Below the pieces are notes generated by a model, which saw nothing but the letters and a program-made list of their open reading frames with translations, was not told where the DNA came from and did no database searches. Both the position numbers and the translations under genes were made by a program. This document shows, piece after piece, positions 6,203 to 37,835 of a stretch of DNA of 64,000 nucleotides (its first letter is position 1; each line of letters starts with the position of its first letter). This DNA is from Candidatus Omnitrophota bacterium. GTDB lineage: Bacteria > Omnitrophota > Gorgyraeia > Gorgyraeales > Gorgyraeaceae. The stretch spans positions 23,109 through 87,108 of the forward strand of contig JAUSEX010000020.1 of assembly GCA_030649895.1 (NCBI GenBank), in the 5' to 3' direction.

Positions 6203-8461
6203 TTGAGCAAGGATAGAAAAGATCTCATGGTTTCAATAGGTTTGTTTGTCCTGGCGCTGTTACTATTGGCCGGGATGATTTCCTACTCGTCTTACGATAT
6301 CGGTTTCGAGACATCCACCCCTAATATACATATCCGCAATTATATAGGAATAACAGGCGCATATACTGCGTGGGCTATATTCAAGCTGATAGGCTATGCC
6401 GGATTTTTTATCCCGTTTCTCTTTATTGTATGGGGCATAGGGATTCTGGCAGAGAGGCTGACCGGAAAACTATTATACAGAATCCTTGGAATTTTATTTT
6501 TATTTTCAGCCAGTTCTGCGTTTTTCAGCTTGACGGCAAGGCCTGATTCGGTTTTGATGGTTGCAAGAGGCGGGCTTTTAGGGTATGTATTAGCGGACAG
6601 GTTTTTGCTGGATTATCTTGGGGCTATAGGCGGGTACATAGTTACGGTAAGTTTAACAATACTGGCGCTTTTAGTAGCCACAGAATTTCTAATAGTGCCT
6701 GTAATCTCTATTTTATTAATGAAAACATGGGCTATAGCGGATAAGATAGGCAGGCAAAAAAGAGAAAAAGGCGTTACCGGTCATGCAAAAACTGAAAAAT
6801 TTGTCAGTGGCCCGAGATTGAGGCCTGCTGTGAAGGTGGAAAAAGCAGCTCAAGGCTCAAGGCTCAAGGCTCAAGGGGAAGAGATAGAAGACAAAAAAGA
6901 GACCAATTCTAAGGACAGGCCGAGGATAAATATAATGTCGAAGCCTGCGGCTAAACCTAAACCCGCGCCTGCAAAAGCAGTAAAGCTTGAGCCGAGAGTC
7001 GTAGGCGATTATAAGCTTCCAAGCCTTGATTTATTGGACTCTCCCGTATTTAAGCCGGGAAGTATTTTTGGAGAAAATCTGGAAGAAAGCGCGAGAATAC
7101 TTGAAGATACGTTAAGGGATTTTGGAATAGAGTCAAAGGTCATTGATATAAGCAAGGGACCTGTTATCACAAGGTATGAGTTGCAGCCCGCGCCTGGGGT
7201 GAAAGTGAACAGAATCACTAGCCTTAACGATGACATAGCCCTTACCATGAAGGCAACCACCGTGAGGATAGTGGCGCCTATACCCGGAAAATCATGCGTC
7301 GGCATAGAAGTGCCTAACGCGGATACCTCAATGGTTTTCTTGAGGGAAATATTGGAATCCAGCGAGTTTCAGAAGATGGCGGCTTCTTCAAAGCTTGCAA
7401 TGGCTTTAGGAAAAGATATCTCAGGTAAATCTGTCGTAACGGATCTTGGAGACATGCCTCATCTTTTAATAGCGGGCACTACCGGTTCAGGAAAAACTGT
7501 TTGCGTGAATTCCTTGATAATGAGCATGGTCTATAACGCTACGCCTGAAGAATTGAAATTTTTAATGGTTGACCCTAAGATGGTGGAACTTGCTATATAT
7601 AATGGACTGCCGCATTTATTGTGCCCTGTTGTTACTGACGCTAAAAAAGTCGCAGGCGCGCTTGGGTGGGTTGTAGGCGAAATGGAAGCAAGATATAAAA
7701 TGCTGGCCAAGATAGCCGCGAGGAACATAACTTCATTTAATCAAAAATCAGAAGAAAAGCTCCCTTACATAGTTGTCATAATAGACGAATTGGCGGACCT
7801 TATGATGGTTGCCCAGGAAGATATCGAGAACGCTATTACGAGACTAGCCCAACTTTCAAGGGCGGTTGGCATTCATATGATACTCGCTACGCAAAGGCCG
7901 TCAGTGGATGTGGTAACCGGCGTAATAAAGGCGAATTTTCCTGCAAGGATCTCGTTTAAGGTTGCCTCAAAGGTTGATTCCAGGACAGTTCTTGATATGA
8001 ACGGCGCAGATAAGCTGCTGGGAAAAGGCGATATGTTATTCTTGGAACCGGGAAGCCCCAAGCCTGTAAGGGCTCAAGGCACGTATCTTACGGACCCTGA
8101 GATAGAAAAGGTCGTAAATTTTATAAAAGCCCAGCAGGAACCGGTATATGACAATGAGATACTCGAGCACCAGAAAAAAAGCGTTTCAGGAAGAGGCGGT
8201 TTTGAAAAAGATGATTTTTTTGAAGAAGCAGTGCAGATGGTGCTTGAAACAGGCCAGGCGTCTGTTTCAATGCTTCAGAGAAGATTAAGGCTTGGCTATA
8301 CGAGGGCTGCCAGGATAGTGGACGCGATGGAAGAAGAAGGCATAATAGGCCCTTTCAGAGGCTCTAAGCCCAGAGAGATATTGATACAGGAATACCAGCC
8401 AAAAGAAGAAGAGGCTGTTGCTAAAAAAGAAGAAGAAAACCAGGAACAGATATCTAGCTAA
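6203..8461 (+). CDS. ftsK: DNA translocase FtsK. The start could instead be ATG 6227.
   Basis: N-terminal TM helices and a Pro/Lys/Ala-rich linker. FtsK/SpoIIIE ATPase with GTTGSGKTV Walker A, then a C-terminal gamma domain (QASVSMLQRRLRLGYTRAARIVDAMEEEGIIGP). Contains an in-frame GCTCAAG x4 heptamer repeat at 6848-6875. Confidence 0.92.
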   Translation: MSKDRKDLMVSIGLFVLALLLLAGMISYSSYDIGFETSTPNIHIRNYIGITGAYTAWAIFKLIGYAGFFIPFLFIVWGIGILAERLTGKLLYRILGILFLFSASSAFFSLTARPDSVLMVARGGLLGYVLADRFLLDYLGAIGGYIVTVSLTILALLVATEFLIVPVISILLMKTWAIADKIGRQKREKGVTGHAKTEKFVSGPRLRPAVKVEKAAQGSRLKAQGEEIEDKKETNSKDRPRINIMSKPAAKPKPAPAKAVKLEPRVVGDYKLPSLDLLDSPVFKPGSIFGENLEESARILEDTLRDFGIESKVIDISKGPVITRYELQPAPGVKVNRITSLNDDIALTMKATTVRIVAPIPGKSCVGIEVPNADTSMVFLREILESSEFQKMAASSKLAMALGKDISGKSVVTDLGDMPHLLIAGTTGSGKTVCVNSLIMSMVYNATPEELKFLMVDPKMVELAIYNGLPHLLCPVVTDAKKVAGALGWVVGEMEARYKMLAKIAARNITSFNQKSEEKLPYIVVIIDELADLMMVAQEDIENAITRLAQLSRAVGIHMILATQRPSVDVVTGVIKANFPARISFKVASKVDSRTVLDMNGADKLLGKGDMLFLEPGSPKPVRAQGTYLTDPEIEKVVNFIKAQQEPVYDNEILEHQKKSVSGRGGFEKDDFFEEAVQMVLETGQASVSMLQRRLRLGYTRAARIVDAMEEEGIIGPFRGSKPREILIQEYQPKEEEAVAKKEEENQEQISS
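6848..6875. repeat. Perfect heptanucleotide tandem repeat (GCTCAAG)x4 inside ftsK
   Basis: Read directly. Encodes AQGSRLKAQG in the FtsK linker. Confidence 0.9.
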
Positions 8462-8462
8462 C

Positions 8463-8515
8463 GCTGTTCGAGCGAATCCTTAGGCCTAGCTCAGGACAGG
8501 TTTCGACTTGCTCGA
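8463..8515. repeat. REP-like element, copy 2, diverged, immediately 3' of ftsK
   Basis: GTTCGAGCGAATCCTTAGGCC...GGACAGGTTTCGACTTGCTCGAA shares the TTCGAGCGA / TTGCTCGAA arms and the GGACAGG core. Confidence 0.5.
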
Positions 8516-8527
8516 AAAATATTAATT

Positions 8528-9319
8528 ATGCCAGAGTCCTTAGGTAAGATATTAAAAAGAGCGAGAGAATCAAAACACCTTTCCCTGGAAGATGTATCCG
8601 AAAGAAGCCGCATACCGAAGCATATTGTCTCAACCATAGAGGATGACCGGCTAGGTGAAATTAAGCCTGTTTTTTATGCAAAAAGTTTTGTAAAAACATA
8701 CGCTGTTTTTTTAGGCGCCCTGAATGAACCCGGCGTAAAAGAATATCTAAGTAGAAATACGCAAGAACCGCAAAAAAAGCAGGAGATAGTCTTAAAGCCC
8801 GCCCCTAAAACCCATGGTGAAAAAATAGATTTTTCCGGCATAGCTAAGTATAAAAATCAGATGATAGCCATAATTATAGGGATATTTGCATTATGGGTGC
8901 TGTCTTTAGCTATTGGCCAGGCTGTTAAATTTGTTAAAAACAGGCCTGTAAAAAAACATGAGAAAACAACCAAGGTTAAAAAAGAGGCTTCCAAGAAAAC
9001 AGAGAAAGAGAAACCAGGGGATGCAATCGCGGTAAAAGACGTAAAAAAAGATGCCTCCGGCGGGAAATCTAGTTTTGTGGAATTGGAGATTTTCGCTTCC
9101 GATAATACATGGCTCCAGGTGACAGGCGACGGAGAAATTGTGTTTACGGGGTTGTTTAAAAAAGGCGGTAAAGATATTTGGAAGGCGAAAAAAGAAATTA
9201 AACTGGAAGCGGGCAATTCAGGCGTTGTTAAAATAAATGTAAATGGAAAACCTGCGGATTTTTCTGGTAAAAAAGGCGAAAAAAAAGAAATTATAATTAC
9301 GAAAGATGGAATAAAGTAA
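8528..9319 (+). CDS. rodZ: RodZ-like cytoskeleton protein (HTH-XRE, one TM, C-terminal DUF4115-like domain)
   Basis: N-terminal XRE HTH (LGKILKRARESKHLSLEDVSERSRIPKHIVSTIE), one TM segment (MIAIIIGIFALWVLSLAIG), a Lys-rich linker and a beta-rich C-terminal domain. Confidence 0.65.
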   Translation: MPESLGKILKRARESKHLSLEDVSERSRIPKHIVSTIEDDRLGEIKPVFYAKSFVKTYAVFLGALNEPGVKEYLSRNTQEPQKKQEIVLKPAPKTHGEKIDFSGIAKYKNQMIAIIIGIFALWVLSLAIGQAVKFVKNRPVKKHEKTTKVKKEASKKTEKEKPGDAIAVKDVKKDASGGKSSFVELEIFASDNTWLQVTGDGEIVFTGLFKKGGKDIWKAKKEIKLEAGNSGVVKINVNGKPADFSGKKGEKKEIIITKDGIK

Positions 9320-9335
9320 TGCCCCTCCCGCCCTA

Positions 9336-10601
9336 ATGCAAAAAACAATCAGCGTTATAAGCCTTGGTTGTCCGAGAAATCTCGTAGATTCTGAAAAACT
9401 CGTGTCTAATTTTATAAAAAAGGGTTACAGGTTTCATGAGGGTATATTAAATTCTGATACTGTAATCGTGAATACGTGCGCTTTTATAGAAGACGCCAAG
9501 AGAGAGTCGATAGACAGTATTCTTAAAGTAATAGACGCCAAGAAAGCAGGCCGCGTTAAAAAGGTTATAGTGGCGGGCTGTTTATCGGAGAGATATAGAA
9601 ATGAACTGGCGGATGACTTAAGAGAGGTGGATGAGTTTAGAGGGGTCCTGAATTTCGATGAATGCGGGGGGCGGTCGCGGCCGTCTGCCGTAAGGCTTAC
9701 GCCAAGACACTATGCGTATGTCAAGATTTCAGAAGGGTGCGCCAACAGGTGCGCTTATTGCGTGATACCTTATTTAAAAGGTAACTATAAAAGCAGGGCT
9801 ATAAGGCCTATAGTTAACGAGGTAGCGCAATTAATCGATAAAGGCGCGAGAGAGATTATTTTAGTAGGCCAGGACACTTCTTTATACGGGATAGATTTGT
9901 ATGGAAAAAAGAGACTGGGAGGCCTGTTAAAAGAGTTAGTTAAGATTTCAAAAGATGCGTGGATAAGATTATTGTACCTGCATCCGGCGAATTTAGATGA
10001 AGAAATTATCAAGGTTATAAGGGATAATAAAAATATATGCAGGTATATAGATTTGCCACTTGAGCATATTAATGATAGAATATTAAATAAGATGCGCAGG
10101 AGGATAAATAAAAAGGAGATAGCGTCTCTTGTAGAGCTTATAAGAAAAGAAATACCGGGTGTAGGCATAAGGACTTCATTTATAGTAGGTTTTCCTGGAG
10201 AAACGGAAAAAGAATTCAAAGAGCTGGCGTCTTTCGTGAAAGAGAAAAAATTTGAGAGGCTCGGTGTTTTTAAATATTCAAAGGAAGAAGGCACCCCGGC
10301 CTATTCGTACAAAAACCAGATCTCAGAAAAAGACAAAGAAAGAAGATTTAACAGGTTGATGTTGGAGCAAAAGGGCGTGTCCGTAAAAATAAACGAAGGT
10401 TTGGTGGGCAAGGTGCTGAAAGTGCTTGCAGAGGAAAAAGGTAAGGATTATTATATAGGCAGGACAGAATACGATGCGCCTGAAATAGACGGACTTGTGT
10501 ATATTAAAGGCAAAGATTTGAAGATAGGGAATTTTTATAATATCAGAATAACCGATGCGTATGAATATGACCTTGTAGGTAATTATGAATCTGGCGAATA
10601 A
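9336..10601 (+). CDS. rimO: Ribosomal protein S12 methylthiotransferase RimO (MiaB-family radical SAM)
   Basis: N-terminal ISLGCPRNLVDSE, radical SAM CANRCAYCVIP, a C-terminal TRAM domain. About 420 aa, typical of RimO rather than MiaB. Confidence 0.7.
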   Translation: MQKTISVISLGCPRNLVDSEKLVSNFIKKGYRFHEGILNSDTVIVNTCAFIEDAKRESIDSILKVIDAKKAGRVKKVIVAGCLSERYRNELADDLREVDEFRGVLNFDECGGRSRPSAVRLTPRHYAYVKISEGCANRCAYCVIPYLKGNYKSRAIRPIVNEVAQLIDKGAREIILVGQDTSLYGIDLYGKKRLGGLLKELVKISKDAWIRLLYLHPANLDEEIIKVIRDNKNICRYIDLPLEHINDRILNKMRRRINKKEIASLVELIRKEIPGVGIRTSFIVGFPGETEKEFKELASFVKEKKFERLGVFKYSKEEGTPAYSYKNQISEKDKERRFNRLMLEQKGVSVKINEGLVGKVLKVLAEEKGKDYYIGRTEYDAPEIDGLVYIKGKDLKIGNFYNIRITDAYEYDLVGNYESGE

Positions 10602-28485: not shown

Positions 28486-28513
28486 ATAAGCTGACTTGAC
28501 AAACCGCATAAGA
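28486..28513 (+). promoter_or_regulatory. Sigma-70-like promoter for the downstream nine-gene operon: TTGACA, 16 nt, TATACT
   Basis: TTGACA at 28486-28491 and TATACT at 28508-28513. Lies in a 340-nt noncoding gap after trpF and about 50 nt upstream of the GTG of the HTH gene. A second TTGACA lies near 28395. Confidence 0.35.
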
Positions 28514-28563
28514 TCATTATACTTCTTTATACTGCGACTTAAAGAGATATAAAGGGGTTTAAC

Positions 28564-28758
28564 GTGACTAAAGCCAAGCAGGTAATGACGGTTAAGGAAA
28601 TAGCGGAATATCTGGGCGTGCACCCTATGACAATATACAAGTATGTCAAGGACGGCAAGATCCCTGCTTTTAAAATAGGGACGAGCTGGCGTATTAGGAG
28701 AGATTCCATAAAGAAATGGATGGATGAGAATGAATACAAAAACCAGGGAGGTGTTTAA
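28564..28758 (+). CDS. Excisionase-family helix-turn-helix DNA-binding protein (putative transcriptional regulator)
   Basis: 64-aa protein. MTVKEIAEYLGVHPMTIYKYVKDGKIPAFKIGTSWRIRRDSI matches the MerR-superfamily excisionase-type HTH. GTG start with AAGGGG Shine-Dalgarno. The stop abuts the ATG of the next gene. Confidence 0.6.
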   Translation: MTKAKQVMTVKEIAEYLGVHPMTIYKYVKDGKIPAFKIGTSWRIRRDSIKKWMDENEYKNQGGV

Positions 28759-30054
28759 ATGTTTAAGCGGGCTGCGATTGTCGCGTTTTTATCTTTTATC
28801 TTAACGGTTTTATCTTGCAGCGCTGTTTTTGCGAATGGTTTTAAGAATGACGCGCTTTTGGACACAGAAGCTACTGGTATGGCTACTTTATTTGTGGCGC
28901 AGGCAGATTCTCCTGCGGCAGTGCAGTTTAACCCAGCCGGACTTACTCAATTAAAAGGAAATCATGCAAGGGTGGGATATACCAGCGCAATCCCAAGGAA
29001 TTTCCGTACGGATACAAGCGGCAATGATCAAAGCAGCTCGCAAATAGACAATTTTTTCATACCTAGTATTTATCTTGTAAATAACTTGAAATCTGAAAAT
29101 TGGAAATTTGGTTTAGGCGTGACATCGCCTTACGGCCTTGGGACAGACTGGGCAGATGACAGTTTTGCAAGATTTCAGACCACAGAATCCAGTTTACAGG
29201 TTTTGCAGATAAACCCGACAATTGCGTATAAATATAATAATACGATTTCTCTTGGGTTTGGGATAGATTATATAATGTCAGAGACATCGAGTCATAAAAG
29301 AATAGCGGATACTACGGGTTTAGGGGATTTTCACGCAAAAGGTAACGATGATGGTTGGGGTTATAATTTAGGACTTCTTGTTAAGCCTTCGGAAAAATAT
29401 AGCATTGGGGTTGCTTATAGAAGCAGAGTAAAGCTTACCTATAAAGGCACTATTTCTATGACTAACTTGTCTAGCGGCATATACGGGTCCGGTGGTTTAG
29501 GATATTTCCCGAATGATACTTATGTAACAGGCATGGAATCCAGGCTTACCCTGCCTCAGACTCTTGCGTTAGGTTATGCGTTCAAACCGGATCAAAAATT
29601 AACAATAGAAACCGATGCCATATGGACAGATTGGTCTAGCGTACAAGAAGATTTCGCGAAATATACTGAAGAAGGAGATGCAAATCGATTAGCTGTTCTA
29701 AATGACGGTAATCCATTGGCAAAGGACTGGAATGCAACTATGTCATATGGTATAGCTGCTAAGTATCAGGCTACTGATAAATTGGTTTTAAGGTGCGGAT
29801 ATTTATATGCGGAAACACCTGTGCCTGCTGCTAATTTTGAGCCTTCCATGGTTGACATGGATATGCACTGCGTTAGCGTGGGAGCGGGATATGCTCTGAA
29901 AAAAGACCTTACTGTTGATGCTGCGTACTTCGGAGGATTTTATAAGGATAGATATATTACAAATGACATAGCCCTTTCTAGCGGTTCTGATTTAGACGGC
30001 ATGTATGAATCGTATGTAAATGTCTTTTCAGTAAGCTTCACTTATAAATATTGA
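28759..30054 (+). CDS. FadL/OMPP1/TodX-family outer-membrane transporter for hydrophobic compounds
   Basis: Signal peptide, N-terminal hatch with the NPAGL motif, amphipathic beta-strand-rich sequence, C-terminal aromatic residues ...FTYKY typical of an OM beta-barrel. Confidence 0.7.
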   Translation: MFKRAAIVAFLSFILTVLSCSAVFANGFKNDALLDTEATGMATLFVAQADSPAAVQFNPAGLTQLKGNHARVGYTSAIPRNFRTDTSGNDQSSSQIDNFFIPSIYLVNNLKSENWKFGLGVTSPYGLGTDWADDSFARFQTTESSLQVLQINPTIAYKYNNTISLGFGIDYIMSETSSHKRIADTTGLGDFHAKGNDDGWGYNLGLLVKPSEKYSIGVAYRSRVKLTYKGTISMTNLSSGIYGSGGLGYFPNDTYVTGMESRLTLPQTLALGYAFKPDQKLTIETDAIWTDWSSVQEDFAKYTEEGDANRLAVLNDGNPLAKDWNATMSYGIAAKYQATDKLVLRCGYLYAETPVPAANFEPSMVDMDMHCVSVGAGYALKKDLTVDAAYFGGFYKDRYITNDIALSSGSDLDGMYESYVNVFSVSFTYKY

Positions 30055-30064
30055 TAATAGAATA

Positions 30065-30343
30065 ATGAAAAAAGCTAAAGATCTGAAGATAGCTGAATTA
30101 TCAAAGAAGAGGGAGAGCGTCAAGAAGTTAATAGCCGAAATCGCCAGGATGGATGCAGACAAGATAGATGAGAGCGATGGCATCAGGGATGATTTAGGCA
30201 TTGACTCCCTGATGGCAGTTGAGATGCTGGCAGCGATCGAAAAGAGATTGGGCGTTGTTATGGATGAAGCAAAGGCGTTTGACATAGTGACAGTAAAGGA
30301 TCTTATAGATCTTGTAATGGAGTGGTTTAAAAACAAAAGGTAA
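30065..30343 (+). CDS. Dedicated acyl carrier protein
   Basis: 92-aa protein with phosphopantetheine attachment motif LGIDSLMAVEM. Not the housekeeping acpP context. Confidence 0.8.
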   Translation: MKKAKDLKIAELSKKRESVKKLIAEIARMDADKIDESDGIRDDLGIDSLMAVEMLAAIEKRLGVVMDEAKAFDIVTVKDLIDLVMEWFKNKR

Positions 30344-30411
30344 GATATATAAAACCGTAATTAACCGTGTAGGTTGCGCGCGACAAACCTATGCGGTTGG
30401 GGTGGTAAAAG

Positions 30412-31839
30412 ATGAACCTAGGTACCTCGCTTCATTGGGTTTCAACTAAGATGAAGGATAAGGCATGCCTGATTGAAGGCGCCATAGAGGTATCTTATTC
30501 AGAGTTATGGAAAAACATAGAAACGCTGGCAAAAGGTTTCCTGAAAATAGGCATAAAAGAAAATGATAAAGCAGTTATAATCCTTCCTAATTGCAAAGAA
30601 TTTATTTATAGTTTCTACGGTCTTGCCAGGATAAATGCAATAAGCGTACCGCTTAATACTTACTTGACTTCTTATGAATTAGATAAGATCTTCAAGGATT
30701 GCGACCCCAAGGTTATTATCACTACATATCAGCTATATAAAAAGAAGATATCTGCTATATCGAATAAAAATATATTAATAATACTCACTGATGAATCGTT
30801 AGAGCCTGGCAAGGACGGCCTATTTGAGTTAGGGGATTTGCTGGCGAAAGGCGGAACCGGAAGATTGCCGCGCTTCAGCGCGAATAATAATCAAATAGCT
30901 ACTATTAATTACACATACCGCGGTTTAGGAGAGGCTATTGGCGCGGTGCTCACGCACGGCAATTACCATCATGGCGCGATAGGGTATCTGCGGCTTACAA
31001 AACTTGTTACAACTCAACGCGTGTTATTAATAACCCCGATGTCGCATATCTTTACTCTGGTAAGCTGCGTTATTGTGCCTTTGTTGCGCGGCGCAACAGT
31101 CGTAATAATGAAAAGCTTTATTCCAAGCCATATATTCAAGGCAATAGAAGATCATAAGATTGATTTTGTTATAGCTGTGCCTACTATTTACATATCGCTT
31201 CTTAAAAATTACAAAAAGGGCCGTTTTGATATATCCAGTCTTAAATATGGAATAACAGGCGGCAGTTATCTATCCGAAAGCCTTAATAAAGAGATCAAAG
31301 AAGAGATGGGCATAGAATTATTGCAGGGTTACGGCCTCACAGAGACAATGCCTATAATGTGCAATCCTCATTCAAGAAATAAGATGGGCTCTCTTGGCGT
31401 AGCGGGCCATGAGGTAAAAGTTAAGATTGTAGACGGCGAAATATTAATAGGCGGGCCTACAGTCATGAGAGGTTACTATAATAAGAACGGCGAGAACAAA
31501 AAATATTTAAAAGACGGATGGTTTAAGACAGGGGACATGGGCTACATAGATGAAGAAGGGTATGTTTATTTTAAGGGCCTGAAAAAAGATATTATAAAGG
31601 TAGGCGGCAATAATGTTGATTTAACTGAAGTAAAAAACGTTTTAAATTCTTTCCCGGGCGCGCGGAATGTGCGCCTGGATATAGTAGGGGATGAATTATG
31701 GGGTCACAGGATACACGCGGAAATAACGGGCCCTTTCAAAAAAGAAGTCACGGATAAAGATGTAAAGGCGTTTTGCAGCGAGAGAATGGCTTTATATAAA
31801 ATACCAAAAAGGATATTAATAAGGATGAGCCGGGGTTAA
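30412..31839 (+). CDS. Acyl-AMP / acyl-ACP synthetase (ANL adenylate-forming enzyme)
   Basis: 475-aa protein with AMP-binding motifs YTYRGLGEAIGAVLTHGN (A3-like), GYGLTE and GWFKTGDMGYIDEEGYVYFKGLKKDIIKVGG. Sits between an ACP and an alpha-oxoamine synthase. Confidence 0.75.
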   Translation: MNLGTSLHWVSTKMKDKACLIEGAIEVSYSELWKNIETLAKGFLKIGIKENDKAVIILPNCKEFIYSFYGLARINAISVPLNTYLTSYELDKIFKDCDPKVIITTYQLYKKKISAISNKNILIILTDESLEPGKDGLFELGDLLAKGGTGRLPRFSANNNQIATINYTYRGLGEAIGAVLTHGNYHHGAIGYLRLTKLVTTQRVLLITPMSHIFTLVSCVIVPLLRGATVVIMKSFIPSHIFKAIEDHKIDFVIAVPTIYISLLKNYKKGRFDISSLKYGITGGSYLSESLNKEIKEEMGIELLQGYGLTETMPIMCNPHSRNKMGSLGVAGHEVKVKIVDGEILIGGPTVMRGYYNKNGENKKYLKDGWFKTGDMGYIDEEGYVYFKGLKKDIIKVGGNNVDLTEVKNVLNSFPGARNVRLDIVGDELWGHRIHAEITGPFKKEVTDKDVKAFCSERMALYKIPKRILIRMSRG

Positions 31840-31874
31840 CCGCGTTTTATATTTAACAACCAAGAGGCATTAAT

Positions 31875-33074
31875 ATGCAAAAATCTCACGCAAATTTTAA
31901 GAACAGGGTTGATTCAGTAATTAAAAGGGTTAAATGGACAAAAGGTAAAAATTATTATTTTTATATGCGAAACCTTGAATCCCCCTCAGAGTCGCGCGTA
32001 AAGATTAATGGCAGAGAGATGATCATGCTCGGCTCCAATAATTATTTAGGATTAACAACGCATCCTGAAGTAAAAGAGGCTGCGATAAATGCGGTTAAAA
32101 AATATGGCGTAGGTTCGGGCGGAGTGAGAATTCTAAGCGGGACGTATAAACTGCACGAAGAACTGGAAAGAGAAATCGCCAAATTCAAGGGGACGGAATC
32201 AGCTATAGTATTTAATACAGGTTTTATAACAAACCTGGGCACTATCATAGCCCTTGTCAATGAAAATAGCGTGGTGATAAACGATGAGAAAAATCACGCC
32301 AGTATAGTAGACGGTTCTATTTCTTCCAGGGCGCAGATCAGAGTTTTTTTACATAATGATATGAAATATCTGGAAAAGATTTTACGTTCTTATCCTAGGA
32401 CTCAGGATAAGCTGATCATAGTGGATTCTGTTTACAGCATGGATGGCGATATAGCGAACCTGCCGGAGATACAAAAGCTTGCAAAGAAATATAACGCCAG
32501 GACGATGATCGATGAAGCGCATGCGTCAGGCGTATTAGGCAGGACCGGCAAAGGGGCTCCGGAATATTTCAATATGACAGGAAAGATAGATATAGTCATG
32601 GGCACTCTTAGCAAGGCCATGGGCGGCTTAGGAGGATTTATTGCTTCCACGGAGGATATAGTCACATATCTGAAACATGTAAGCAGAGAATTTATCTTTT
32701 CCGCGAGTTTACCGCCTGCGATTATCGCTGGAAATATAGCGGCAATTAAAGTTATCCGGAAAGAGCCGCATTTGCTGAAGCAGCTTTGGAGAAACATAAA
32801 ATATATAAAAAAAGGGCTGGCGGGATTAGGTTACGACATAGGCAATAGCCAGTCAGCTATTATACCGGTTTTAATCAGGGATGAGGTAAAGACATTTAAG
32901 ATGGCGCAGATACTGGATGAGGCGGGTATTTTCGTAAACCCGGTGGTCTTTCCTGCAGTAAAAGAATCAGAATCAAGGATCAGGATTAGCGTAATGGCCT
33001 CGCATAGTTTAGCGGACCTAACCAGGGCATTAGAGGCTTTTAAGAAAGCAGGAAAACAGATAGGGCTGATTTAA
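31875..33074 (+). CDS. PLP-dependent alpha-oxoamine synthase (BioF/KBL/serine-palmitoyltransferase/CqsA family)
   Basis: 399-aa protein: LGSNNYLGL, DEAHASGVLG, GTLSKAMGGLGGF (PLP lysine). The stop TAA is immediately followed by the ATG of the histidine kinase. Confidence 0.8.
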   Translation: MQKSHANFKNRVDSVIKRVKWTKGKNYYFYMRNLESPSESRVKINGREMIMLGSNNYLGLTTHPEVKEAAINAVKKYGVGSGGVRILSGTYKLHEELEREIAKFKGTESAIVFNTGFITNLGTIIALVNENSVVINDEKNHASIVDGSISSRAQIRVFLHNDMKYLEKILRSYPRTQDKLIIVDSVYSMDGDIANLPEIQKLAKKYNARTMIDEAHASGVLGRTGKGAPEYFNMTGKIDIVMGTLSKAMGGLGGFIASTEDIVTYLKHVSREFIFSASLPPAIIAGNIAAIKVIRKEPHLLKQLWRNIKYIKKGLAGLGYDIGNSQSAIIPVLIRDEVKTFKMAQILDEAGIFVNPVVFPAVKESESRIRISVMASHSLADLTRALEAFKKAGKQIGLI

Positions 33075-35279
33075 ATGATACAGCTACAACTAAGCAGCGT
33101 TTCTATCGCGATAATAATCAATATTCTTTTGGGGTTATTCGTCTATTTTAAAAACCCAAAGAAATGGGTCAATCTTTCTTTTGTGCTGATGACCTTTAGC
33201 GTTGCTTTGTGGAATGCAGGGGATGTTTTGATTGCATTTTCAAAAGATTCCTCGATTGCTATTATTTGGAGTAGAATTTCTTATGTAGGCGCGGTTTTTT
33301 TTCCAACATTTTCTATTCATTTCGTAGTTTCTATAATTAGAGACGTAGTGCATAAAAATTGGAAGAAAGTTCTTATTGTAACTTATGCCAGCACGATTTT
33401 TTTACTTTGTTTTATTTTTACGCCTTTCATTATTAAAGGCGTAATGCTTAAACCTTTCAAAGAAATACCCGGGCCTCTTTATTTTCTTTTTATATTATTT
33501 TTTATGTCCTGCTTTGCATACCTGTTTTATATCCTGATCAAAGCCCTTAAAAAATCCACAGGTTTAAAGAGAACGCAATTAGGATATGTATTATTAGGAT
33601 ATTTCACAGGCGCCATCGCCGGATTGATTTATTTTTTAATATTGCAGGGATTTAATATACCGCCTATTCATTACATAGTTGAAATAGGCTATACCCTGGT
33701 AGTGTCCTACGCTATTATAAAATACAGGCTAATGAATATAAGATCAGCAGTTACCCGCGCCGGGGTATTTGCTTTTGTTTATACGGTAGTATTGGCTATT
33801 CCTTTTATAGTGGGGGGTATAATAAAGACGCATATTTCCAGCGTATCTTCTAATTGGTGGATAATACCGCTTTTGACAGGTATTGTCCTGGCCAGCGCAG
33901 GCCCTTTTATTTATATAGGGTTACAGAGAAGATTCGAATCCAGGTTAAGAGCTATGGAGTTCAAGTCGCACGAGGCGTTGAGGCGGCTTTCGCATAATAT
34001 GCTCAGATTCACTAACCTGAATGTTCTTTTAAGGCTGATGGTGCATTATTTAGTTAAAGTTTTGAAACTTAGATTCGCAGCTATATATTTATTTGATAAA
34101 CAGAACGAAAGATATATATTAAGCAGCGTCTGGTATAGCGGTGAAAACGTTGAATTGCCGCAAGAATTTGAGGTAAATAGCTATCTTGTGGAATATATGC
34201 ATTTAAAGAAACTGCCTGTAGTAGCAGAAGAGCTATCGCTTTATGCGCCTGTATCCTTGGCCTCTAAGATAGGGAAGCTTTCTTCTGATTTATCAGCTAT
34301 CAAGATAAATACAGCGATCCCGTCATTTTTAAGAAATAATCTCATAGGTTTCTTGATATTATCTGACAGAAGGAGGAAAAATATACCATTTACCCAGGAG
34401 GACCTCAATTTTTTGATGGTCCTTTCTAACGAGGCGGCGCTTGCTATTGAAAACGCGCAGTTTCATCAAAAGGAGGTTTCAACGCTTGTTGAAAAATCCA
34501 AAAGAGAAGCTCTTGCGGATATGGCTCCCGGGGCGTCCCATCAGTTTAATAACCGCCTTGCTTCCATAAGTTCTTCAGTGGAGCTTTTACTTTTCAAAAT
34601 GGAGAATTTTAATATAGAAGCTCATTATGACGAGAAGACCAGGGCCTTGCTTAAGGATACAAAAGAAACCCTGGAATTAATAGATAACGAGGTCTATAAA
34701 GGCAAGGAAATAACGTCCGCAATCTTAAAAAGGGCTAAGGCAAAAGTGGAGTTTCAGGAGTTTGACCTGCCAACCCTTATTGAAAATACATACAAGCTTG
34801 TCATGATAAGCCGTTCCCGTTCAGGCCTGGATAGAGCAAAAGAGCTGAAATTTAATATAGTCTGTCTTAATAAGATACCTGATATATTCGCAAGCGAAGC
34901 GCTGCTGCAGGATGTTTTTTATAACCTTATAGATAACGCTTATGACGCCATACAGGACAAGGCAAGGCTTATGAGCCAGGGAGGAAACTCTTTTTATCAG
35001 GGCGATATCGAGGTTTCGCTTAGTCAAGAAGGCAATATTATAGTGGCCAAGGTGAAGGACAACGGGATAGGCCTTACAAAAGAAAACCATAGAAAGCTTT
35101 TCACGCCTTATTTTACCACCAAGGCTACGTCTAATAAGGGAAGCGGGCTGGGTTTGTGCGTAATAAGGGATTTTATAGAGATGCACAAAGGCGCGATTGC
35201 CTGCGATTCGGAATACGATAAAGGCGCCACCTTTACCATAAGATTACCGATAAAGAAGGAGAAAATCCATGGAACCTAA
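33075..35279 (+). CDS. Membrane-bound sensor histidine kinase (7-TM N-terminal domain, GAF, HisKA, HATPase_c)
   Basis: About 290 aa of multi-pass TM helices, a GAF-like region, H-box ASHQFNNRLASI, and ATP-binding G-boxes DNGIGL...GSGLGLCV. Confidence 0.8.
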   Translation: MIQLQLSSVSIAIIINILLGLFVYFKNPKKWVNLSFVLMTFSVALWNAGDVLIAFSKDSSIAIIWSRISYVGAVFFPTFSIHFVVSIIRDVVHKNWKKVLIVTYASTIFLLCFIFTPFIIKGVMLKPFKEIPGPLYFLFILFFMSCFAYLFYILIKALKKSTGLKRTQLGYVLLGYFTGAIAGLIYFLILQGFNIPPIHYIVEIGYTLVVSYAIIKYRLMNIRSAVTRAGVFAFVYTVVLAIPFIVGGIIKTHISSVSSNWWIIPLLTGIVLASAGPFIYIGLQRRFESRLRAMEFKSHEALRRLSHNMLRFTNLNVLLRLMVHYLVKVLKLRFAAIYLFDKQNERYILSSVWYSGENVELPQEFEVNSYLVEYMHLKKLPVVAEELSLYAPVSLASKIGKLSSDLSAIKINTAIPSFLRNNLIGFLILSDRRRKNIPFTQEDLNFLMVLSNEAALAIENAQFHQKEVSTLVEKSKREALADMAPGASHQFNNRLASISSSVELLLFKMENFNIEAHYDEKTRALLKDTKETLELIDNEVYKGKEITSAILKRAKAKVEFQEFDLPTLIENTYKLVMISRSRSGLDRAKELKFNIVCLNKIPDIFASEALLQDVFYNLIDNAYDAIQDKARLMSQGGNSFYQGDIEVSLSQEGNIIVAKVKDNGIGLTKENHRKLFTPYFTTKATSNKGSGLGLCVIRDFIEMHKGAIACDSEYDKGATFTIRLPIKKEKIHGT

Positions 35280-35652
35280 TCCGGGCCGCAAGGTCCTGCT
35301 AATCGACGACGAAGAAACTTTATTAAAAAACATAGGGGAATTTTTAAAGGTCGGGGGATATTCTGTTTTTACATCTTCCAATAGTACGGATGGGCTGGAG
35401 TTGCTGAGAAACCATGGCCCTGATTTATTGCTTCTGGACCTGCATCTAAAAGAAGGGCTTACGGGCATGCAGGTCCTGAGGGCCGCAAAGATGCTGAAGC
35501 CTGATTTAAAGGTTGTTATATTGTCAGGATTCGGCGAAGAAGAGGATACGAAAAAGAGCTGTATTTCACTTGGCGCAAGCGCTTTTTTAGGAAAACCCAC
35601 GTCTCTGAGAAGCTTGTCTGAGATTATAAAGAATCTTCTGGAGGTAAAATAA
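35269..35652 (+). CDS. Stand-alone response-regulator receiver (CheY-like)
   Basis: KVLLIDDEETLL...DLLLLDLHLKEGLTGMQVL...KVVILSG with conserved D, D, T and K of REC. Overlaps the HK stop by 11 nt. Confidence 0.85.
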   Translation: MEPNPGRKVLLIDDEETLLKNIGEFLKVGGYSVFTSSNSTDGLELLRNHGPDLLLLDLHLKEGLTGMQVLRAAKMLKPDLKVVILSGFGEEEDTKKSCISLGASAFLGKPTSLRSLSEIIKNLLEVK

Positions 35653-35892
35653 ATGCAAGGAAAATTAAGAGAAGAATTTCATGGTATAAACAATTTACTT
35701 AACAAAATAACTACTCAGGCAGGCATGGCTAAGTATCATCTGGAAGAAAAAGGGTTTGATCTTGCAAAGATCGAAGAGGAGAAAGAGCGGCTCATAAAAG
35801 TCCTGGATAGCATGGAAGAGAACGCCATGAATATAGGGGAGTTGTTAAGGAACCTGCGCAAAGGCATCGAAACAGGGAGATCCTGGGAATGA
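35653..35892 (+). CDS. Small helical protein, possible Hpt-like phosphotransfer protein
   Basis: 79-aa predicted all-helical protein with one His in EEFHGINNLLNKITTQAGMA (HxxxN..L..K...G, Hpt-like). Start abuts the REC stop, and its stop overlaps the next REC gene by 4 nt. Assignment is inferential. Confidence 0.3.
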   Translation: MQGKLREEFHGINNLLNKITTQAGMAKYHLEEKGFDLAKIEEEKERLIKVLDSMEENAMNIGELLRNLRKGIETGRSWE

Positions 35893-37835
35893 GTAAGAAG
35901 ATTTTGATAGTGGATGACGAGATAGACATTACCTTGGTTTTGAAAGAATTTTTTATATCGAAGGGCTATGAGGCGCTTGCTGCGTTTAACGGCAGGGAAG
36001 CGGTAGGCTTTTTAAATCAGCCTGGCATAGATCTTATTTTATTGGATATGCAGATGCCGGATATGAGCGGGTTAGAGGTATTAAAGGAAGCGAGAAAAAT
36101 ACACAAAGACACGAAGATAATAGTATTGACGGGTTTTTCAGAGGAATATAAAGAAGAAGCGGAAAAGATAGGATGTGATGCGTTTCTGACAAAACCATTT
36201 TCCATAAGAACGCTTATAACTGCAGCAGAGTCTGTCCTGACCGGTAAAGAAGAAGGTAGAAGCGATATAGCGACTCTTATGGAAGATGATAATGTATTAG
36301 CGAAGGCGAAACTCCTTTTTATTGAGCCAAACGAAATAACATACGGCTCGAAATTATCGTATTTCCGGGATTTGAAACATTGCAAAGGCAGGTATCGGGT
36401 AGCAGCGGCTTTCACGGAAAACGAGGCTATGAAAAAGCTGGAAGAATTTAAACCTGACATTGTATTGAGCGATATAGGCGTATTCAGGTTATATAAGCTG
36501 AGAGATAAGATTTTAAAGATGCAAAGCCCTGCAAAAGATATAATATTATACGGCCTTTCCCCTGACGCCAAGGATTCGTTGAAAAACGGCTATGCCTCGT
36601 TTGTCGGGGGCCTGTTTGATCCGATAACTGCTATGGTTAGCCCGGAAGAAATGGATAGGCTGGGAAAAATTGTCCGCAGGGCAGCGATGGAACATGGTTT
36701 GTATAAAAGTCAGGAAACAGAAACCGAGCAATTTTACAACTATCATAAAGTCCTCCTGGAAGCCAGTAAAGGCATGGTGCTTATAACTGACACAAGCAAG
36801 TTGTTGTATCTTATTGTATACGTAGTGAAAAAACATATGAAGCTAAAAAGCGCGTGCATATTTTATTATGATGAACAGGACAAGAGTTTTGTCCTAACGT
36901 GTAAGCGCGGAGAAAGCGATGCGCAAAGAGGCTACAGGATAGGCGATTCGCACCCTTTTATAAAATGGTTAAAGGACAGGCAAAGCGGGTTTTCATATAA
37001 TAAAGACGATTTTATGAATCTGCCTGATGTCGGAAACGAACTGGAGAAGCTTGGCTGCGCAGCGTGCGTGCCGAGTTTTAATAAAGACAAGCTTATAGGA
37101 TTTTTGATTTTGGGCAATAAACTGTCGGGTGATTCGTACGCGAGGGAGGAGCTGGAGTTATTGTTAACCATTTCTAACGAAGCCGCTATTGTAATAGAAA
37201 ACGCTAAAAATGTCTTTGAACTGCAGAAATTAAGGGAAAAAGAGAAAGAAAATTATTTTCAGACAATTCTCGCCTTAGCCAGGACAGTGGATGAAAAAGA
37301 CGCTTATACGCGTGGCCATTTGGATGAGGTTACCAGGTATGGGGTGATAGTGGCGGAAGAACTGACGGAATCTTTAAAAATAAATATAGACATGGAAGAA
37401 TTGAAGACAGCGCTTCTTCTTCACGATATAGGAAAGATTGGCGTGCCTGACGCGCTGCTTCATAAAATATCCAGCCTGACGCCCGAAGAGTTTGAAATAA
37501 TGAAACAGCATTCTGCAATAGGCGCAAGGATTATCGAGCCTATAGAGAAACTGAAAAAGATAGGCAGGATCATAAAACATCACCAGGAAAAATATAACGG
37601 CACAGGTTACCCCGACGGACTTAAAGGCGAGGATATCCCCCTTGAGTCCAGGATAGTGGCTGTGGTGGATGCGTATCACGCAATGATATCGGACAGGCCT
37701 TACAGAAAGGCCCTGCCCGAAGATACGGCCTTGAATGAGCTCAGGAGCTGCAGAGGCACGCAATTCGACCCTTTGATAGTAGATGCGTTTCTCAGGGCTT
37801 ATGAAAAAGGTAAAATAGTAAAGCGTAAAATTTAG
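35889..37835 (+). CDS. REC-(REC-like)-GAF-HD-GYP c-di-GMP phosphodiesterase-type response regulator (RpfG-like)
   Basis: N-terminal REC (ILIVDDEIDI...DLILLDMQMPDMSGLEVL), a second degenerate receiver, a GAF-like domain, and a C-terminal HD-GYP domain (LLHDIGKIGVPD ... HHQEKYNGTGYPDGL). Confidence 0.85.
   Translation: MSKKILIVDDEIDITLVLKEFFISKGYEALAAFNGREAVGFLNQPGIDLILLDMQMPDMSGLEVLKEARKIHKDTKIIVLTGFSEEYKEEAEKIGCDAFLTKPFSIRTLITAAESVLTGKEEGRSDIATLMEDDNVLAKAKLLFIEPNEITYGSKLSYFRDLKHCKGRYRVAAAFTENEAMKKLEEFKPDIVLSDIGVFRLYKLRDKILKMQSPAKDIILYGLSPDAKDSLKNGYASFVGGLFDPITAMVSPEEMDRLGKIVRRAAMEHGLYKSQETETEQFYNYHKVLLEASKGMVLITDTSKLLYLIVYVVKKHMKLKSACIFYYDEQDKSFVLTCKRGESDAQRGYRIGDSHPFIKWLKDRQSGFSYNKDDFMNLPDVGNELEKLGCAACVPSFNKDKLIGFLILGNKLSGDSYAREELELLLTISNEAAIVIENAKNVFELQKLREKEKENYFQTILALARTVDEKDAYTRGHLDEVTRYGVIVAEELTESLKINIDMEELKTALLLHDIGKIGVPDALLHKISSLTPEEFEIMKQHSAIGARIIEPIEKLKKIGRIIKHHQEKYNGTGYPDGLKGEDIPLESRIVAVVDAYHAMISDRPYRKALPEDTALNELRSCRGTQFDPLIVDAFLRAYEKGKIVKRKI

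Follow-up and report, generated by a model that had tools for sequence, protein, structure and literature searches.

Between two response-regulator receiver (REC) genes in a 64,000-nucleotide stretch of Candidatus Omnitrophota DNA (contig JAUSEX010000020.1; the entire stretch is called the window below) lies a 79-residue open reading frame (ORF) that very probably encodes a free-standing hairpin of the dimerization and histidine-phosphotransfer (DHp) type, with His10 equivalent to the phospho-acceptor histidine of sensor kinases. In the reading that we favor, to which we assign a probability of roughly 0.6, this protein would be a dimeric histidine phosphotransferase of the Spo0B, ChpT, and PhyT type that has been reduced to a bare hairpin and serves in a putative His489-Asp57-His10-Asp53 relay leading to an HD-GYP regulator. 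Two hairpins would pair to form a four-helix bundle, displaying His10 on helix 1. The neighboring kinase, which has seven-transmembrane (7TM) and GAF regions, would autophosphorylate His489 and pass the phosphoryl group to Asp57 of REC1, the single-domain receiver encoded immediately upstream of the hairpin; phosphorylated REC1 would then dock on the hairpin dimer and transfer the phosphoryl group to His10; and from His10 it would presumably move to Asp53 of the downstream REC-GAF-HD-GYP regulator, controlling hydrolysis of cyclic di-GMP (c-di-GMP). The hairpin may in addition be bifunctional and speed receiver dephosphorylation, because Asn14 sits where HisKA domains carry their phosphatase residue.

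Multiple profile comparisons support the assignment of the small protein to the DHp domains. First, when a hidden Markov model (HMM) of its family was searched against 692 ORFs from the window and related loci, the best non-self matches were the co-operonic kinases, and the alignments ran without gaps from HMM position 9, the histidine, which fell on the kinase phospho-acceptor histidine, to the end of helix 2. Against 593 ORFs of 29 related loci, the same His-on-His register was found in six distinct kinase lineages; the best HMM match to a kinase DHp domain was to the kinase of L024 (E = 9.3e-7; L numbers denote related loci). Second, in a narrow hhalign comparison of the family with DHp segments of orthologous kinases, the score was 29.9, compared to 10.2 ± 2.0 for column-shuffled templates. 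Third, a diverse DHp profile was assembled from eight segments, seven from kinases of related loci and one from solved ZraS; a homologue search with the kinase DHp segment had given 3 fragments only, and the related-locus kinases were used for this profile. The 39-member family aligned to it over 67 columns, His on His, with 95.6% probability (E = 1.2e-8), and the real score of 47.6 compares with 10.2 ± 2.2 for column-shuffled templates (maximum 17.3, n = 200) and 16.5 for the reversed template. Finally, when the H-box was deleted, the remainder of the hairpin aligned to DHp in an unchanged register with a score of 18.4. The likeness of the H-boxes is also visible by eye, as the kinase reads GAS-H-Q-F-N-N-R-L-A-S-I and the small protein reads EEF-H-G-I-N-N-L-L-N-K-I. 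On the strength of this profile-profile homology, we place the small protein in the broader DHp (His_Kinase_A-like) fold, even though no curated profile detects it.

A word-indexed search identified nine close relatives at 62–99% identity, and a HMMER search of 1.84 billion representative proteins gave 19 matches, 16 of them true family members and three repeat-protein noise. These true matches were one 53-residue fragment, proteins of 74–91 residues, and one 722-residue protein with the small protein as its N-terminus. Further small proteins were gained by profile search, and look-ups together with a metagenome scan yielded distant subfamilies (22–40% identity), making three diverged subfamilies overall; a first metagenome scan with the profile of subfamily A5 had given zero matches. 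Apart from the fragment and the fusion, family members are mostly 74–91 residues long and carry no further domain. The related loci all appear to come from Candidatus Omnitrophota, and the genomic ones are Omnitrophota metagenome-assembled genomes.

An alignment of 39 full-length sequences, with identities down to ~20%, defined the motif R-x-x-F-H-x-phi-x-N-x-L-N-K-I-[TS]-x-x-x-G. Counted from the histidine, which is present in 39/39 sequences, the conserved columns are Phe at –1 (38/39), Asn at +4 (39/39), Leu at +6 (30/39), Asn at +7 (36/39), Ile at +9 (38/39), and Gly at +14 (35/39); in window numbering, His10 and Asn14 are thus invariant and Phe9, Asn17, and Ile19 nearly so. The original prediction had described a protein with a single histidine and had made conservation of that histidine in orthologues a test of its proposal. 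The protein in fact has two histidines, His10 and His29 (35,737–35,739), but only His10 is invariant; position 29 is Tyr, Arg, or another residue even in close relatives. Compared to the H-[E/D]-x-x-[T/N] motif of HisKA DHp domains, the histidine and the Asn at +4 are invariant in the hairpins, whereas the residue at His+1 is acidic in just 11 of the 39 sequences, is Gly in the window protein, and varies among Ser, Asp, Glu, Asn, Ala, Lys, Gly, and Thr across the family. The hairpins match the DHp domains of bifunctional HisKA kinases in homology over their whole length, in the position of the histidine, and in the Asn at His+4, but differ in having no attached sensor or catalytic domain and no conserved acid at His+1.

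Members of the distant subfamilies extend beyond helix 2 in conserved C-terminal tails; one group has 'IY..IDPDTGKP' and another has 'VY.LLKIDTSKP'. Examples in alignment A3 are P0035 and P0019 (..IDPDKE/IDPDTGKP) and P0025, P0027, and P0043 (..LKIDTSKP); the subfamily of the window protein lacks these tails, which may be partner-binding peptides.

AlphaFold2, run with the family alignment, predicted a two-helix hairpin (helix 2–32, turn 33–36, helix 37–74) with a mean confidence (pLDDT) of 87.8 and His10 on helix 1; the template-modeling score (pTM) of the monomer was 0.44, as expected for an elongated hairpin. The chain ends five residues past helix 2, with no domain resembling the kinase catalytic (CA) domain behind the DHp-like hairpin. 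When two copies of the window protein were joined head to tail in an artificial tandem, a compact four-helix bundle was predicted with a pTM of 0.80, compared to 0.44 for the monomer, a result that shows only that the sequence is compatible with a dimeric four-helix bundle. A Foldseek search of the PDB with the monomer model gave no matches.

Could the small ORF be a chance reading frame between two receiver genes, with no functional gene present? It is short, and its sole database annotation is the 'hypothetical protein' attached to an identical deposited protein (MDO8602565.1, Candidatus Omnitrophota). Nevertheless, its dN/dS values against three orthologues are 0.06–0.10, with synonymous sites near saturation, indicating strong purifying selection; full-length homologues occupy the same position in dozens of contigs; and a Shine-Dalgarno-like motif precedes a start codon that, like the stop codon, is coupled to a neighboring gene. 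Residue conservation, recurring gene order, and dN/dS together refute a chance ORF. As originally described, coupling occurs on both sides: the ATG directly abuts the TAA of REC1 (35,650–35,652) with zero spacer, and the stop codon shares an ATGA at 35,889–35,892 with the start codon of the receiver gene that follows. The kinase and REC1 genes overlap by 11 nucleotides. Because these genes overlap or abut, the kinase, REC1, hairpin, and regulator genes form one tightly coupled unit.

The same gene order recurs in relatives. Close relatives have a 7TM-GAF kinase, a single REC, the hairpin, and a REC-GAF-HD-GYP regulator. Distant subfamilies have a GAF kinase and then a single-domain REC directly 5′ of the hairpin, and in most of their loci a REC-containing gene lies 3′, encoding either a single REC of 125–134 residues or a 280–304-residue protein with a REC and an unknown domain. 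Among 21 non-redundant informative loci, a receiver precedes the hairpin in ~19 and follows it in ~17. The acidic pair and phospho-acceptor Asp are kept in all REC1 and REC2 copies in 15 loci (the window and 14 others). Two loci also contain fusions. In L022 (1–690), the end of a HATPase_c domain (residues 7–88; E = 8.4e-5, below the Pfam cut-off because the domain is truncated) and a receiver (113–221) share one frame; this is a kinase catalytic domain fused to REC1, as in a hybrid kinase, and it ends 4 nucleotides before the hairpin gene. Kinases of this architecture usually depend on another protein for His phosphotransfer. In L030 (2043–4211), a 722-residue ORF places the hairpin in frame with the REC-GAF-HD-GYP regulator across the junction ...LRRDLTGR-MHKRVLIVDDE. 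The His-Asp-His-Asp logic of the original prediction is supported by the conserved gene order, the invariant histidine, and these two fusion cases, and both flanking genes that it had called receivers match Response_reg (E = 1.7e-20 and 1.5e-28).

Features of the hairpin and its neighborhood can be compared with several known systems. Spo0B, in the sporulation phosphorelay of Bacillus subtilis, has a hairpin with the phospho-histidine on helix 1, and its dimer is a four-helix bundle; the hairpin is shared by the protein described here, for which the dimer is proposed. Spo0B takes phosphate from the single-domain receiver Spo0F and passes it to the response regulator Spo0A, the same kinase-REC-His-REC logic as in the gene order here. 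The H-box of Spo0B, H-D-W-M-N-K-L-Q-L-I, has the His, a hydrophobic residue at +2, Asn at +4, Leu at +6, and Ile at +9 in common with the hairpin family. However, Spo0B carries an extra C-terminal α/β domain derived from a kinase catalytic domain, whereas the protein here ends after the hairpin; moreover, the spo0B gene does not lie between those of its two receivers, and the Pfam family SPOB_a is not matched here in the scans described below. ChpT of Caulobacter crescentus (PMC3433190) and PhyT of Sphingomonas melonis (PMC5898713), which we compared by description, are likewise kinase-derived dimeric DHp-type phosphotransferases that act between receivers, but each still carries a degenerate ATP-binding domain, to which PhyT adds a membrane anchor and a periplasmic domain. 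The PhyT relay runs through Pak, SdrG (a single REC), PhyT, and PhyR, and PhyT keeps an HRxxN motif with Asn at His+4, as here (PMC5898713). Because it lacks a CA-like second domain, we do not file the hairpin as a member of the Spo0B/ChpT/PhyT family. The fallback of a 'Spo0B-like' protein offered by the original prediction comes close to the evidence for a DHp-type hairpin homologous to the kinase phospho-acceptor domain.

In text searches of the literature for stand-alone or DHp-only proteins, the sole hairpin-only precedent found was HmrB of Caulobacter crescentus (CCNA_03325), a putative 'atypical HPT' of 108 residues that forms an all-helical hairpin without a Foldseek match to solved structures (PMC11481889). 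Its gene adjoins a hybrid kinase gene, its predicted dimer is a four-helix bundle, and it has been proposed to be a hairpin-only phosphotransferase; the evidence is genetic plus the predicted dimer, two candidate histidines are both needed, no DHp homology was reported, and HmrB is confined to the Caulobacteraceae (PMC11481889). Compared by description with HmrB, the family here has one invariant histidine and demonstrable homology to DHp domains.

Several observations weigh against the relay proposed here. In HisKA domains, 'phosphatase kept, kinase lost' is marked by the pattern seen here, an invariant Asn at His+4 but no conserved residue at His+1 (PMC3510030). Pfam and NCBIfam scans of the window protein returned sub-threshold coiled-coil noise only; no curated HisKA, SPOB_a, or Hpt profile recognized it at E ≤ 10, and these families were also absent from the 25 most often matched of the 61 families obtained when 21 family members were scanned with Pfam. 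Searches of PDB sequences with two family profiles (A1 and A3) found no kinase and no phosphotransferase. The tandem model is an artificial construct with forced proximity, and its Foldseek matches are to generic or designed bundles only. In three lineages (L008/L014, L015, and L025/L026), the hairpin is not followed by a receiver gene, and L023 has CrcB rather than a receiver upstream; since these loci lack a flanking receiver, a relay in them would need a distant partner. Each fusion is found on a single short or low-coverage contig (1.2 kb for L022; 6.6 kb at 3.6x, from the European Nucleotide Archive, for L030), and the L030 fusion is tentative because an assembly error is possible in a single contig at this coverage. 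The missing database matches say little, however, because the genuine DHp domain of the neighboring kinase, searched as an isolated segment for control, likewise matched no kinase in the PDB.

If the hairpin were a DHp-only phosphatase, its dimer would dock on phosphorylated REC1 or on the phosphorylated receiver of the regulator, Asn14 would position a water molecule for hydrolysis in the manner of bifunctional HisKA kinases, and the protein would set the off-rate of the signal while carrying no phosphate itself. The isolated DHp domain of EnvZ, for example, retains phosphatase activity toward phosphorylated OmpR. The invariant Asn at His+4 and the variable His+1 favor such an activity, as HisKA kinases require the Thr or Asn at His+4 for phosphatase activity alone (shown in CrdS and HK853) and the acid at His+1 for kinase activity alone (PMC3510030). 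The three lineages with kinase, REC, and hairpin but no adjacent second receiver also favor it. By contrast, the histidine is kept in every family member, although the cited kinases can dispense with it as phosphatases, or at most benefit from it, and a His-to-Ala HisKA mutant keeps most of this activity (PMC3510030). The receiver that usually follows the hairpin, the fusion of the hairpin to the regulator in L030, and its placement after a hybrid kinase in L022 likewise argue against a simple phosphatase. PhyT, a proven phosphotransferase, also keeps HRxxN, and thus Asn at His+4 is compatible with phosphotransfer; moreover, the window kinase keeps its own Asn at His+4 (HQFNN), so a separate phosphatase seems redundant. 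We regard this alternative as unlikely, but it is the main rival to the relay. A non-catalytic role is more improbable. The hairpin might mimic a DHp domain and act, unphosphorylated, as an adaptor or inhibitor that heterodimerizes with the kinase DHp domain, sequesters a receiver, or scaffolds both, thereby tuning the output of the kinase or holding the two receivers together. Homology to the kinase dimerization domain makes heterodimerization conceivable, there is no catalytic domain, and the family is small and lineage-restricted, with the 16 true representatives noted above. Yet a structural mimic needs no invariant solvent-facing His and Asn at the exact phosphotransfer positions, and placement between two receivers, or after the hybrid kinase of L022, fits a relay component better.

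The original prediction itself was of a minimal histidine phosphotransfer (Hpt) domain, the monomeric four-helix bundle of PF01627 that occurs at the C-termini of ArcB and RpfC and in YPD1, LuxU, and ShpA. Such domains have the role proposed here, a His station between two receivers, and the window protein is small, all-helical, has a conserved His, and occupies the place at which a relay to an HD-GYP regulator should have its Hpt domain. Nonetheless, the profile, motif, and fold all disagree with this reading, which therefore fails and which we hold to be very improbable. PF01627 was not matched in the scans described above; the sequence around the histidine, H-G-I-N-N within the family motif F-H-x-phi-x-N, does not provide the loose fit to the Hpt consensus that had been suggested and contains nothing like HxxKG; AlphaFold2 predicted two long helices and not the Hpt-like bundle of four helices in one chain; and the profile-profile homology is specifically to DHp domains. 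The same scans gave no match to the Spo0E-type aspartyl-phosphate phosphatases, which are small helical hairpins, and the SQELD motif is absent from the 79 residues. The likeness to RpfC-type hybrid kinases stands in one respect. RpfC (HK-REC-Hpt), signaling to RpfG (REC-HD-GYP), is a close functional analogue of this operon, and the analogy is fair because the output here is a REC-GAF-HD-GYP protein; RpfC acts via a classical Hpt domain, however, and homology of the phosphotransfer modules does not hold. The reduced, dimeric DHp-type phosphotransferase remains our preferred reading. Coordinates of the hairpin gene and its neighbors are collected in the table.

Table. Features of the hairpin operon in the window, and copies of a second small ORF family in related loci.
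Feature	Position	Strand	Basis or remarks
Sensor histidine kinase, 734 aa: 7TM region, GAF, DHp with H-box 'GASHQFNNRLASI', HATPase_c	33075..35279	+	Pfam
REC1, single-domain receiver, 127 aa, proposed intermediary	35269..35652	+	Pfam Response_reg 1.7e-20, residues 9-120
GGAGG Shine-Dalgarno-like motif	35640..35644	+	8 nt 5′ of the small ORF ATG, within the end of the REC1 gene; read from sequence
Small ORF, 79 aa, probable free-standing DHp-like helical hairpin	35653..35892	+	ORF list, AlphaFold2, hhalign, dN/dS
H-box-like conserved block, residues 5-24 (LREEFHGINNLLNKITTQAG)	35665..35724	+	Column statistics, 39 sequences
His10 codon, proposed phospho-accepting His	35680..35682	+	39/39 homologues; on kinase H-box His in all HMM and hhalign comparisons
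Asn14 (His+4) codon	35692..35694	+	39/39; HisKA kinases require the equivalent Thr/Asn for phosphatase activity (PMC3510030)
Output response regulator, 648 aa: REC, degenerate REC-like stretch, GAF, HD-GYP	35889..37835	+	Pfam, NCBIfam
Second small ORF family	L010:2468-2731, L016:5735-5989, L017:1514-1768, L018:4989-5249, L020:6495-6758, L024:3941-4213		None in the window

The kinase matched HisKA_7TM (8.6e-18), GAF_3 (7e-8), HATPase_c (2.9e-22), and, weakly, HisKA (0.014) in Pfam. Its DHp and CA regions aligned to solved ZraS (9jfj, E = 3.6e-19) and CckA (5idj), with His489 (34,539–34,541) on their H-box histidines. The residue at His+1 is Gln in the window kinase (34,539–34,553, SHQFNN) and in those of L001, L003, L006, L007, L024, and L025, and the other co-operonic kinases have HE. 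In CrdS, an E-to-Q mutation at His+1 abolished autokinase activity (PMC3510030).

REC1 has the acidic pair Asp13/Asp14, the phospho-acceptor Asp57 (35,437–35,439), Ser86, and Lys109. The corresponding residues of the regulator are Asp9/Asp10, Asp53 (36,045–36,047), Thr81, and Lys102, with the HD motif at residue 512 and GYP at 573. In Pfam, the regulator matched Response_reg in two stretches (1.5e-28), GAF, HD_5 (2.2e-37), and HD (5.4e-22); in NCBIfam, it matched 'response regulator c-di-GMP phosphodiesterase' at 4.2e-60, which is below the cut-off of that model. These matches suggest that it is probably a c-di-GMP phosphodiesterase. Between the REC and GAF domains, a degenerate receiver-like stretch occupies residues ~125–290. 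In L001, the regulator is split into a 276-residue gene with the REC and middle regions (8245–9075) and a 374-residue GAF-HD-GYP gene (9075–10199), and this first half may have its counterpart in the 280–304-residue proteins encoded after the hairpin in L010, L019, and L020. We also inspected the marks that separate intermediary from terminal receivers, the FATGUY motif and an aromatic switch residue (PMC9981736). Both receivers have [ST]-G-F and an aromatic residue at K–3, and because they carry the same features, this test does not separate REC1 from the REC of the regulator.

Some loci contain additional genes. In L016 (3541–4855), a pair resembling a nucleotidyltransferase and HEPN protein separates the kinase from REC1, and a GIY-YIG-like ORF of 109 residues separates REC1 from the hairpin (all three assigned by eye from sequence); in L017 (3–473), a HepT-like toxin gene lies 5′ of REC1. 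These inserted or flanking genes are mobile-looking.

In the window, the two-component genes end a series of co-directional, tightly spaced genes (28,564–33,074) that encode a small helix-turn-helix protein, a FadL/Toluene_X-like outer-membrane protein, an acyl carrier protein, an AMP-binding ligase, and a class-I/II aminotransferase of the α-oxoamine-synthase type, whose stop codon abuts the kinase start (33,074/33,075). The same block is found in L001, and in L003 an epimerase and a B12-radical-SAM enzyme replace the aminotransferase. A strong promoter-like site (28,496–28,523) lies ahead of the block; in the promoter and terminator scan as a whole, counts were no higher than in shuffled sequence. 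Through this block, the sensor may be connected with acyl or lipid metabolism.

A second conserved family of small ORFs (84–90 residues) occurs in loci of the distant subfamilies, directly after the downstream single-domain receiver. Its members read 'MANPLPNE..IHPLIWELINHHIGNDLYxINLIxG..' ('MANPLPNE...WELINHHIGNDL...'). The best non-self matches of an HMM of this family were the DHp domain of the L018 kinase (E = 0.011) and the first hairpin family, always with His32 on the H-box histidine; hhalign probabilities were only 7–14%. The second family may be a second mini-DHp station. A more speculative extension, which we consider rather doubtful, is that Omnitrophota possess a hitherto unrecognized, modular relay unit, consisting of a single-domain receiver and a bare DHp hairpin, that can be chained in the order kinase-REC-miniDHp1-REC(-REC)-miniDHp2. 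If so, phosphorelays would extend beyond the classical four steps and would be built from the smallest known phosphotransfer proteins.

Taken as a whole, the homology and gene order make a good case that these minimal DHp hairpins, so far without annotation, form a lineage-restricted family at a genomic position suited to a phosphotransfer protein. The known His stations between receivers are either monomeric Hpt domains or kinase-derived dimers with a dead catalytic domain (Spo0B, ChpT, and PhyT). If the relay that we propose operates, a bare DHp hairpin of 74–91 residues would be the minimal phosphotransfer unit, the catalytic-domain remnant would be dispensable, and designers of synthetic phosphorelays would gain an attractive minimal component. 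The hairpin family would also account for an unannotated gene that escapes standard domain searches, and because it escapes them, relays in uncultivated phyla are probably under-counted. For Candidatus Omnitrophota, a phylum with almost no experimental signaling data, the relay would connect c-di-GMP turnover, through an HD-GYP output, with a 7TM-GAF sensor kinase.

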